Below the pieces are notes generated by a model. That model did not search any database. It worked only from the letters and a program-made list of their open reading frames with translations, and was not told the DNA's origin. Positions 11,394-31,558 of a stretch of DNA of 64,000 nt are shown one piece after another. The stretch lies in contig OZ242326.1 of NCBI GenBank assembly GCA_965208325.1, forward strand, positions 3,904,001 through 3,968,000, in the 5' to 3' direction. A program made the position numbers and the translations under genes. Each line of letters begins with the position of its first letter. The stretch's first letter is position 1. Origin of the DNA: Candidatus Poribacteria bacterium (GTDB taxonomy: Bacteria; Poribacteria; WGA-4E; PCPOR2b).

Positions 11394-11705
11394 ATGAACC
11401 AGTTTTTCAAGGTGGCCGAGGTCAGTGAACTGCCGCCCGGTGGAAAGAAGTTAGTTGAAGTAGATGGACTTCCAGTTGCGATTTTCAATGTGGATGGTGA
11501 TGTTTATGCTATTGAGGACGTTTGTACCCACGATGGAGGTCCGCTCGCTGAGGGTGAGCTGAAAGGCGATGAGGTGGAATGTCCAAGGCACGGAGCGCGT
11601 TTTAGCGTTCGGACGGGAGAAGCCCTCTGTATGCCGGCCGTTGAACCGATAGAGTGTTTTAAAGTCAAAATAGAAGGAGACAATATCCTTGTGTGCGTCG
11701 ATTAA
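11394..11705 (+). CDS. Rieske-type [2Fe-2S] ferredoxin
   Basis: CTH...CPRH Rieske motif. Confidence 0.93.
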   Translation: MNQFFKVAEVSELPPGGKKLVEVDGLPVAIFNVDGDVYAIEDVCTHDGGPLAEGELKGDEVECPRHGARFSVRTGEALCMPAVEPIECFKVKIEGDNILVCVD

Positions 11706-23222: not shown

Positions 23223-24122
23223 ATGTTCAATCGTACTTGGAAGCGGAATCAGCTATCGGTGTTGGTTATCCTGATGTTTACCGCCGCTGCCTATCCGCTG
23301 GCCTTTGCATCAACCGAGATTAAGTGGGAGAAGTCAATTGAGAAGGGAATGATGGAAGCCCAAGAAACAGGTAAACCCATTATGATGGACTTTTACACAG
23401 AATGGTGAGGTTCCTGTAAGCGGCTGGATGCCACTACGTTTAGTGATTCAAAAGTTGTTGAACTATCAAAAAAATTCGTTACCTTGAAGTTAAATCCGGA
23501 GTCAAGCGATGAGCACGCTGAAGCTTACAGGACATACGGAGATGGATCAGGCGCAGTCCCAACAATTGCATTCGTTGACACTGAAGGGAATCCAATCAGT
23601 GTTATTGTTGGTTACAGAGATGCAAAGGAATTTGCCGTGCTTATGGAGGGGACTCTCAAGGAGGAAGAACGGTTTCAGCAACTAAAAATTGAAATCAAAG
23701 AAAATCCAGATGCCCCGATGATTAATGCTGAAATTGCAATCATCTATGTCAAGCGGGGGGACATTGAGAATGGCAAACCTATCGCCGATAAAGTTCTTAA
23801 ACTAGATCCAATGAACAAAACCGGTTTGTTGCCGGATATCCACCTCAACCTAGGATTACATTACGCAACGCATGCTGATGAAGACAACGCGGAAGATTTT
23901 TATCGAAAGGCGGAGACGCACTTTCAAACGGTCATCGAAAAGTACGCACAAAGCACAGTTTATGAGCAGGCTAAGTATCACCTGAGCTTAACCTATGCAC
24001 TTCAAAAAAAGTATCAACAGGCAATCGAACTTCTTGAGACATTGAGCGATTCTAAGAACGAAGAAATTAAGGCAAACGCTGGTGTTTTGCTAGATCGCAT
24101 CAAAACGTTCATTGACGAGTAG
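23223..24122 (+). CDS. Exported thioredoxin-fold/TPR selenoprotein (UGA 23406-23408 read as Sec; WUGSC)
   Basis: ORFs 23223-23408 and 23484-24122 share one frame with only TGA between them: MDFYTEW-TGA-GSCKRLD. Signal peptide, TPR-like C-terminus and a downstream hairpin. Confidence 0.9.
23415..23437 (+). promoter_or_regulatory. Putative bacterial SECIS element
   Basis: GUA-A-G-C-GGC(UGGAU)GCC-A-C-UAC hairpin. Apical loop begins 16 nt after the UGA and has G at position 2. Confidence 0.6.
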
Positions 24123-29935: not shown

Positions 29936-30484
29936 TGATTTCCCCTTTGAACCGGTGTTAACCCATGGTCGCTCGGATTCGCCTATGCCTGCGCAATCAA
30001 ACCTACACCACATCGGAAATTGTATCAAATTGTAACGCTGACCGTCAATGTGTTTATCCCAACGGCCCATCAGCAAATAATTTGGAATGAGGCAATAAAC
30101 TAAATTCCAAACTGCAATCCATCCGACGAACTTAAACATGGTTGCGCCGATTGTCCATATTTAGGCCATAGACTAAAAACCGTGAATTCCCCAGATTTGC
30201 AGAAGGCGATGTGTCCCGAAAGAGGCATTTTTCAACAACCATCGCCTGTGATTGAAAATGATGAGGATTTATCCATGCACTCAAGAAATCTAGCGCCGAC
30301 TACGAGATTAACTTTGATAAAATTCTGTCGGCTTTTGTTCTGTAGATGTTGGTCAAAGAATGCCGTAATGTATTTAATCGCGGGGATGATTCTTCATTTG
30401 CAACTCCATTTGCTGCTGTGGTACACTTTGTACGAGGGGGATGTTCACATTTTAGAGGAAAAATCGGTAGAAAAGGAAAAAAAT

Positions 30485-31558
30485 GTGGTTAGACAATCCA
30501 TTATATTATCAGCCGCCGTGTTAATTTTACTGGTTAGTAATGTGTCAGCTTCGGAGAAAATCGGCGCGCCTAATGCGGGCAAAAGATTCTCAGAAGACCA
30601 CATCATCACAGTATTGCCCTTCGATGCAATCCCCGCAATCAAGGATCCGCGGTTTGTCTCTGCCCGCGAGGCAAAATTGCGAGACGATTCACCGATGATT
30701 GGAGTCAGTTTCAACGGTGAAAGCCATGCCTACTCTATCTATCTGCTTAATGGGCACGAAATTGTCAACGATGTTGTTGGCGGCGTGGAAGTAGCGATTA
30801 CCTGGTGACCACTCTGTCGAACGGCAATCGTGTATAGCCGCGAACTCGAAGGAAAAACGTATACCTTTGGAGTCTCAGGCAAACTGCTTTACGATGCACT
30901 TCTGATGTATGACCATCAAACGCGTTCCCTTTGGTCACATATCACGGGGAAAGCAGTAACAGGGCAACTCAAAGGAAAACAGTTGTCAATGATGGCTGCA
31001 ATGCCGCAAATCACTTGGAAAGAGTGGCGATTAAACTACCCGAACACAAAAGTGCTCTCTGTTCAGTTCGATTCCCGTCATCCGAATCTGAAAATCGAAG
31101 AGCCGAAGTTCGATAGTTATGCAAGATATCGAGCTGGACCCAATGCAGGAATAAGTTCTACACAATATAACGATAACCGTTTACCGAATAAATCAGTCGT
31201 TATCGGTGTGCGAGTCAATGCCCGTTTCAGTGCCTATCCTCTTACAGCGTTTGACAGGACATCCGTTATAAACGATGTCATTGACGGTGTGCCGGTCTTA
31301 GCGTTTCACGACAATGTGTCCGGCGCGGCCGCTGTGTTTATGCGTGCACTGGAAGGGAAGATTCTCACTTTTGAGCCGTGCGGCGGAAATGTTGCCATAG
31401 ATACCACGACTGGCACGCGCTGGAATTTGGTCGCTGGCAAGGCTACCGAAGGAAAACTCAAAGGTAAGACTCTTGACCGAATTCCGGCGATGAATATCTA
31501 TTGGTTTGCATGGGGACGTTACCATCCTGAAACAACCGTCTATCAATTGCCGGATTAG
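30485..31558 (+). CDS. Exported DUF3179-family selenoprotein (UGA 30806-30808 read as Sec; WUPLC)
   Basis: DAIPAI.DP.F, HEIVND, ITW-TGA-PLCRTA, FGVSGKL, MYD.QT.SLW and WFAW all lie in one frame. GTG 30485 starts a signal peptide. Confidence 0.9.
30821..30840 (+). promoter_or_regulatory. Putative bacterial SECIS element
   Basis: CGGC-A-AU(CGUGU)AU-A-GCCG hairpin with the loop about 20 nt after the UGA and G at loop position 2. An alternative UGUC(GAAC)GGCA stem lies closer. Confidence 0.45.

Follow-up and report, generated by a model that had tools for sequence, protein, structure and literature searches.

The window, a stretch of 64,000 nucleotides from a Candidatus Poribacteria bacterium (contig OZ242326.1, positions 3,904,001 to 3,968,000), contains on its forward strand a gene of the DUF3179 family whose reading frame passes through a TGA codon. 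The following features were recognised at this locus:

30485..31558, + strand: DUF3179 selenoprotein gene, 357 aa with selenocysteine at residue 108 (U108); residues 47-350 match PF11376 at profile positions 2-292 of 292 (268.8 bits, E 8e-80)
30473..30477, + strand: likely ribosome-binding site AAGGA, 7 nt upstream of the GTG start, judged from the sequence
30485..30550, + strand: predicted signal peptide, residues 1-22, with R3, a hydrophobic core, a V-S-A end and no Cys
30674..31054, + strand: repeat 1, residues 64-190, with H91-E92 and U108-P-L-C111; 35% identity to repeat 2, E 2e-20, hhalign 99.94
30755..30760, + strand: H91-E92, conserved in repeat 1 only (H 98/104, E 97/104); strands E93-98/E101-108
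30806..30808, + strand: in-frame TGA, read as the selenocysteine codon (U108) from TGA/Cys conservation in relatives
30822..30840, + strand: likely SECIS of the bacterial type, with a CGUGU loop (30829-30833) 20 nt past the UGA; +14..+20 pair with +26..+32 in the stem
31178..31540, + strand: repeat 2, residues 232-352; predicted Rieske-like fold lacking both CxxC and Fe-S ligands; 92 residues superpose on 2qpz_A (VIA-align Z 9.4, rmsd 3.0)

The frame starts with GTG at 30485 and ends with TAG at 31556-31558, and its sole internal stop is the TGA at 30806-30808, in the context ITW-TGA-PLCRTA. This bears out the sequence-only reading, according to which a second in-frame TGA interrupts an otherwise continuous protein of 357 residues: the read-through product has that length and matches the whole DUF3179 profile with 268.8 bits against a curated cut-off of 27, and the two halves cover non-overlapping parts of the profile (2-64 and 66-292). 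The window gene is the single DUF3179 match in its genome, and a search of NCBIfam gave no family. Standard annotation had been expected to split such a gene, and this is what the databases contain. Among the best 120 database hits, 105 lack the Sec column, most of them pieces of 233-294 aa that start with MYSR, and Cys occupies it in each of the 15 full-length hits; the 242-aa downstream piece itself exists as a database protein. The TGA and the downstream hairpin, position 30826 included, are identical in contigs from four sponge-metagenome runs belonging to four studies, contigs that differ from the window at 0 to 18 other letters each (the identical one, X5, may be the source). Because all four runs show the same letters, an assembly error at the TGA is excluded, and the same base in these runs also rules out a sequence error as the origin of the mismatch at 30826. 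A scan for promoters and terminators returned no promoter-like site and one terminator-like site within the gene, which is chance level, and a look for expression listed no RNA data set with this locus.

That this TGA is translated is supported by its relatives. The 80 closest loci, which are the best 80 of 168 in the genome collection and represent close kin rather than independent events (78 are Ca. Poribacteria by name and two are named "uncultured bacterium"), have TGA at this position in 79 cases, TGT in one, and TAA or TAG in none, and 240-250 open codons follow the TGA in the conserved loci. In the 80 rows with TGA (the 79 loci plus the window copy), the P-L-C that follows is identical throughout, and its codons vary synonymously. 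DUF3179 matches were obtained in 38 of 41 related genomes, where all 30 best loci, the window's own among them, read W-TGA-PLC, and in 138 of 151 genomes of the phylum, where most of the listed matches have one TGA, a statement that does not rest on a row-by-row tally. Outside this group, the TGA corresponds to a cysteine. The expectation that the family has a YCPLC-type CxxC at this position proved correct: out of 150 distant representatives, 10 incomplete ones were left out (four off the column and six aligned through the second repeat), and the remaining 140 full-length homologs have Cys in 133, Ser in six and Asp in one, the commonest motifs being YCPLC (55), WCPLC (26) and FCPLC (26). Neither outcome named as a refutation was seen: the homologs do have Cys at the C/U column, and the two halves are not consistently encoded as separate genes with ribosome-binding sites of their own.

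Several deviating copies deserve mention. The only Cys copy among the 80 loci (L075:4001-5044 in genome G041, the same as P0008) has TGT. In a tree of 39 rows, comprising 30 of 81 orthologs and nine Cys homologs, it is nested within the Sec clade with strong support; it retains the full hairpin, and its genome retains selA. Sec has probably been replaced by Cys here in recent times, leaving the hairpin as a relic, although a single-base assembly error is conceivable; that its host lost the Sec machinery is ruled out by the presence of selA. In a genome of the same genus, frame changes and a TAA disrupt the copy (L195, G001:C1:2680900-2682400), which reflects either a pseudogene or assembly errors. 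Four orthologs of family f2, genus g8 (G025, G028, G031 and G034) carry about 40-75 extra residues in the linker that joins the repeats, giving frames of 398-434 codons that are matched as two pieces. Several Poribacteria also possess a second, Cys-type DUF3179 paralog with F-C-P-E-C (in one case F-C-S-E-C) and no hairpin (L184-L186, L194, L197-L199). The six full-length homologs with Ser at the column are P0126, P0144, P0150, P0161, P0220 and P0234; three of them read W-S-P-L-S, a motif devoid of Cys, and these Ser-type proteins are possibly inactive or repurposed forms.

The genome is equipped for selenocysteine incorporation. The genes selA, selB, selC and selD are all found above curated cut-offs; the tRNA-Sec has an anticodon UCA and scores 77.5 bits against a cut-off of 47, it adjoins selB and selA at C1:2041.5-2045.0 kb, and selD has a single in-frame TGA of its own.

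Downstream of the UGA lies the CGGC/GCCG hairpin noticed in the sequence-only reading (CGGC at 30822-30825, GCCG at 30837-30840). The hairpin is present and is conserved in the relatives, but the window sequence taken alone folds no better than chance: its z scores against shuffled sequences range from 0.04 to 0.77 in four stretches, with -0.22 in a fifth, and a loose hairpin rule is satisfied by 3177 of 10,179 arbitrary TGA contexts genome-wide. Since the single sequence folds unremarkably, the hairpin was tested by comparison of relatives. Their consensus stem, CGGCUAU/AUAGCCG, has 7 bp; the window copy forms six of these pairs and has an A.A mismatch at 30826/30836, being the only one of the 80 TGA rows with A in place of U at +18. 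In a codon alignment of these rows, the codon-sharing chance at codons +5 to +9 is 0.89, 0.97, 1.0, 1.0 and 1.0, as compared to means of 0.37-0.62 elsewhere, depending on the degeneracy class, and only one of 171 other informative codons reaches 0.9. These five near-invariant codons supply the bases of the 7-bp stem and the CGUGU loop. Furthermore, the stem cells are paired in 98.6% of cases, versus 14-43% in slid registers, and G16 pairs either way with the freely varying +30 (C or U). The covariation among UGA-containing homologs that had been suggested as a test did not appear: the 80 TGA rows contain no two-sided compensatory change, two pairs vary on one side, three are invariant, and two depart only by unpaired cells; the column-shuffle control for covariation was uninformative (500/500). 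The 13 Cys-type copies from Poribacteria form only two or three of the seven stem pairs, a comparison in which their amino acids differ at these positions as well and in which 8 of 21 loci had no motif match.

The bacterial SECIS model described in PMC13188914 has a loop of 3-9 nt, a stem of 4-16 bp and a G in the first two loop positions, according to the legend of its Fig. 2, together with a distance of 16-37 nt from the UGA and a minimum free energy of -7.5 kcal/mol or lower. The 5-nt loop, 7-bp stem and 20-nt spacing of the window hairpin agree with three of the four criteria as given there, and its energy, -4.4 kcal/mol, falls short of the limit. When computed, as for the window, for the stem alone and not for bSECISearch's own window, the energies of the orthologs have a median of -6.8 kcal/mol, and 38 of 81 pass -7.5. 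Five orthologs have stems weaker than that of the window, and so the mismatch gives no support to the idea that recoding is decaying here. The conservation of the hairpin among relatives is what supports it, and we regard it as very probable that SelB binds it and inserts selenocysteine. A genome-wide scan combining motif and hairpin, tried as a means of finding further selenoproteins, was swamped by chance matches (at least 557 UxxC/CxxU contexts). A hairpin built like that of the DUF3179 gene, CGGC-UGGAU-GCC, is conserved across 30 loci of another gene in the window, located at 23223-24122 (+), which has a TGA at 23406 and likely encodes a second exported selenoprotein, a thioredoxin (W-U-G-S-C) fused to TPR-like helices. 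This candidate has a match in 39 of 41 related genomes, the best ones with one TGA. A fixed link between the two genes, which lie 6.4 kb apart, was ruled out, given that they are close to each other only in genus-level relatives.

Based on the above, the gene encodes one protein, almost certainly with selenocysteine at the in-frame UGA, and we consider it a real and well-supported hidden selenoprotein gene. Its N-terminus is hydrophobic and signal-peptide-like by a simple window rule, in agreement with the export that had been proposed; the best 12-residue hydropathy is 3.32, and the same rule, applied without a negative control, is passed by 81 of 81 rows. In the structural model, helix 3-18 has low pLDDT. 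Because it contains no Cys, the signal peptide is probably cleaved rather than lipidated.

An AlphaFold2 model built from 104 sequences (pLDDT 90.9, pTM 0.86) is mostly beta, and the protein is an internal duplication: repeats 1 and 2 share 35% identity, with an hhalign probability of 99.94%, and only repeat 1 has H91-E92 and the UxxC motif. In the model, U108 closes strand 101-108 and P-L-C occupies the next turn. By strand register, H91-E92 would face U108 from the other side of the beta-hairpin, which suggests a Sec-His-Glu centre. In a fold search of 48,161 chains, Rieske proteins took ranks 1 to 44, with the match lying on repeat 2. Among them were the Rieske-type ferredoxins 2qpz, 1vm9 and 3dqy and the NirD-like small subunit 3c0d (Z 9.4, 8.9, 8.7 and 8.2, rmsd 2.6-3.7, 91-94 residues); NirD is itself a cluster-less Rieske-like protein. 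Foldseek also matched Rieske proteins with probabilities of 0.98-1.0, at E values of only 0.02-0.07. Repeat 1 modelled alone and without an alignment was uninformative (pLDDT 50, best Z 5.2 in the fold search), and by its likeness to repeat 2 it may be considered Rieske-like too. Profile-profile comparison with 32 Rieske domains reached a probability of 0.9% with repeat 1 and 5.7% with repeat 2, neither of them significant, and the link to Rieske proteins is therefore one of predicted structure, not of demonstrated common ancestry.

Going by the model, the protein has a scaffold resembling a Rieske domain without being a Rieske iron-sulfur protein itself. In contrast to Rieske ferredoxins, it has no CxH...CxxH ligands, its only Cys/Sec positions being 108, 111 and 299; it comprises two tandem copies, it is predicted to be exported, and its UxxC would sit on the hairpin turn before box I. 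The weak alignment of repeat 2 (probability 5.7%) places D-T-T-T opposite the Rieske box II C-P-R-H and also puts the position that corresponds to the UxxC on the turn before box I, a register consistent with the ranges of the structural match. At 11403-11660 (+), 19 kb away, the window contains a canonical Rieske ferredoxin gene whose CTH and CPRH boxes are intact, and no link with it was seen. Searches of the PDB by sequence and by profile gave nothing below E 1 (best E 1.0-1.5), and an ESM Atlas search with the natural Cys ortholog returned DUF3179 clusters only. The protein has no thioredoxin Pfam hit, and no thioredoxin appears among the listed fold matches; thioredoxin-fold oxidoreductases have their CxxC at the start of a helix, and in the model the UxxC lies on a beta-turn.

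What might such a protein do? Firstly, the first motif position is better conserved (C in 133 of 140) than the second, which among 146 aligned homologs is C in 125, A in eight, S in seven and T in three. A first residue conserved more strongly than the second is what one expects when the former attacks and the latter resolves. Secondly, among 37 homologs selected for their length, the commonest recognised fusion, in 13, adds an AhpC-TSA/Redoxin domain that has a WCxxC or CxxC of its own; other fusions are to FN3/Ig, VWA, WD40 and NHL domains. Envelope reductases fed by DsbD/CcdA and TlpA (ResA) are exemplified by the periplasmic MsrAB/PilB, and in our proposed model the DUF3179 protein resembles these in being an exported CxxC/UxxC enzyme that is often fused to a thioredoxin-type reductase. 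It differs from them in having no sequence match to solved structures and in being neither fused nor adjacent to TlpA in Poribacteria, where no redox partner was found fused or conserved nearby; the commonest neighbours there, as named from sequence, are SDR-like and Gfo/Idh/MocA-like oxidoreductases and a peptidase-like protein. The genome does encode a DsbD-family protein and has 10 TlpA-like matches, five of which contain an internal TGA. These five TlpA/peroxiredoxin-like matches (G000:C1:4184306, 821467, 135125, 1378150 and 4409366) are candidates for further selenoproteins and possible partners.

We therefore lean, with a confidence somewhat above an even chance, towards an envelope selenol redox enzyme whose U-P-L-C would be recharged by DsbD/TlpA. 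Following export into the envelope by the predicted signal peptide, the selenolate of U108, helped by His91/Glu92, would attack an oxidised periplasmic substrate (a disulfide, an oxidised thiol or a peroxide), C111 would resolve the attack product, giving a selenenylsulfide that a DsbD-fed reductase of the TlpA type would then reduce again.

Two other readings accept the selenoprotein and assign it another role. On the one hand, U108, C111, H91 and E92 may bind a metal or metalloid (Cu, Zn, Fe, Hg or As) on the Rieske-like scaffold, the protein acting as a periplasmic metal chaperone, sensor or scavenger that TlpA merely keeps reduced. The joint conservation of a His, a Glu and two chalcogen residues in repeat 1 and the likeness of the fold to a metal-cluster scaffold are consistent with this, and the TlpA fusions fit it equally well. 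However, the second Cys is missing in about one in seven homologs, which a four-ligand site would poorly tolerate, the motif precedes the Rieske ligand boxes, on a hairpin turn, and is no part of them, and none of the commonest neighbours in Poribacteria, as named from sequence, was recognised as a metal-transport gene. We consider a metal site unlikely, at roughly one chance in five.

On the other hand, the protein could be a surface-binding or scaffolding module that has a redox switch but no catalytic activity, involved in contact with the host or the matrix. The two-fold internal repeat with its conserved Trp residues would suit such a module, as would the fusions to FN3/Ig, VWA, WD40 and NHL domains and that to a long TPR array. 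The last is seen in L196:416-3487 of genome G003, a 1024-codon frame, also present in G001, in which what reads by eye as a long TPR-like array is joined to a divergent DUF3179 with F-C-E-L-C and with H-H-V-A-N for H-E-I-V-N. The fact that the commonest recognised fusion is a reductase speaks against a surface module, and the retention of costly Sec recoding in most sampled genomes of the order suggests a reactive residue, so that we rate this reading as a little less probable again than the metal site.

Returning to the codon itself, one could argue that the UGA is a true stop, leaving either two genes, one of 107 aa and one of 242 aa starting at GTG 30830, or a pseudogene. This GTG, the gene callers' false start, is invariant in all 80 rows, the databases do contain the 242-aa piece as a protein, the window hairpin is weak, and one same-genus genome (G001) has the broken copy. 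The GTG lies, however, within the SECIS loop, no Shine-Dalgarno-like run precedes it, and the cut would fall inside repeat 1, leaving a second half without a signal peptide. Moreover, the stop would always be TGA and always at the Cys column, with a nested ortholog that has TGT in an unbroken frame. The seven codons from the UGA to the GTG are under in-frame amino-acid constraint, and the P-L-C among them persists in all 80 rows while its codons vary synonymously, something for which the two-gene model has no explanation; we hold a true stop to be very improbable. That UGA is decoded as Trp, Cys or Gly through an altered genetic code or a suppressor is more improbable still, to the point of being negligible, as no evidence for it was found, the tRNA-Sec is the sole tRNA with a UCA anticodon among the genome's 49, and under table 11 the window's long genes have open frames.

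DUF3179 selenoproteins are not new as such. DUF3179 (PF11376), with UxxC/T, is a row of predicted selenoproteins in two reviews of prokaryotic selenoproteomes (PMC9312934 and PMC13188914), both of which cite Zhang and Gladyshev 2007 (PMC1976440), whose new families bear OS_HP names; PMC9230427 lists DUF3179 in a table without a function. The window protein shares with these known selenoproteins the Pfam family, the UxxC motif, a single Sec and a hairpin of the bacterial SECIS type, and the rows in question give no fold, partner or function. The family was not found in the titles and abstract openings of papers on Poribacteria and selenocysteine in the open-access literature, so that Ca. Poribacteria are, as far as these searches reach, a new lineage for DUF3179 selenoproteins. 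Nor did the open-access literature yield experimental data on DUF3179 proteins, a Rieske-like selenoprotein, a Rieske fold bearing a CXXC, or a proposal of this fold or of a TlpA-type partner for the family.

As a gene call this is unremarkable: it adds a correctly read member to a listed selenoprotein family whose genes the databases split. The broader proposal, which we put forward tentatively and at somewhat less than even odds, is that DUF3179 is a class of selenol/thiol oxidoreductases on a duplicated, cluster-less Rieske-like scaffold with a Sec-His-Glu centre and a resolving Cys. Such an enzyme would stand at the end of the DsbD-TlpA line without being a thioredoxin, and sponge-associated Poribacteria would have kept it as a near-core selenoprotein. 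The picture of Poribacteria as users of selenoproteins is extended, with a compact SECIS that is seen through synonymous-site constraint. A direct assay exists, since the fusions name a partner and the model supplies a Rieske-like scaffold and a candidate His/Glu pair to go with the residue that Sec marks. By marking the working residue, selenocysteine thus offers a way into a large family of unassigned function, of which we counted 10,332 representatives at E <= 0.001.
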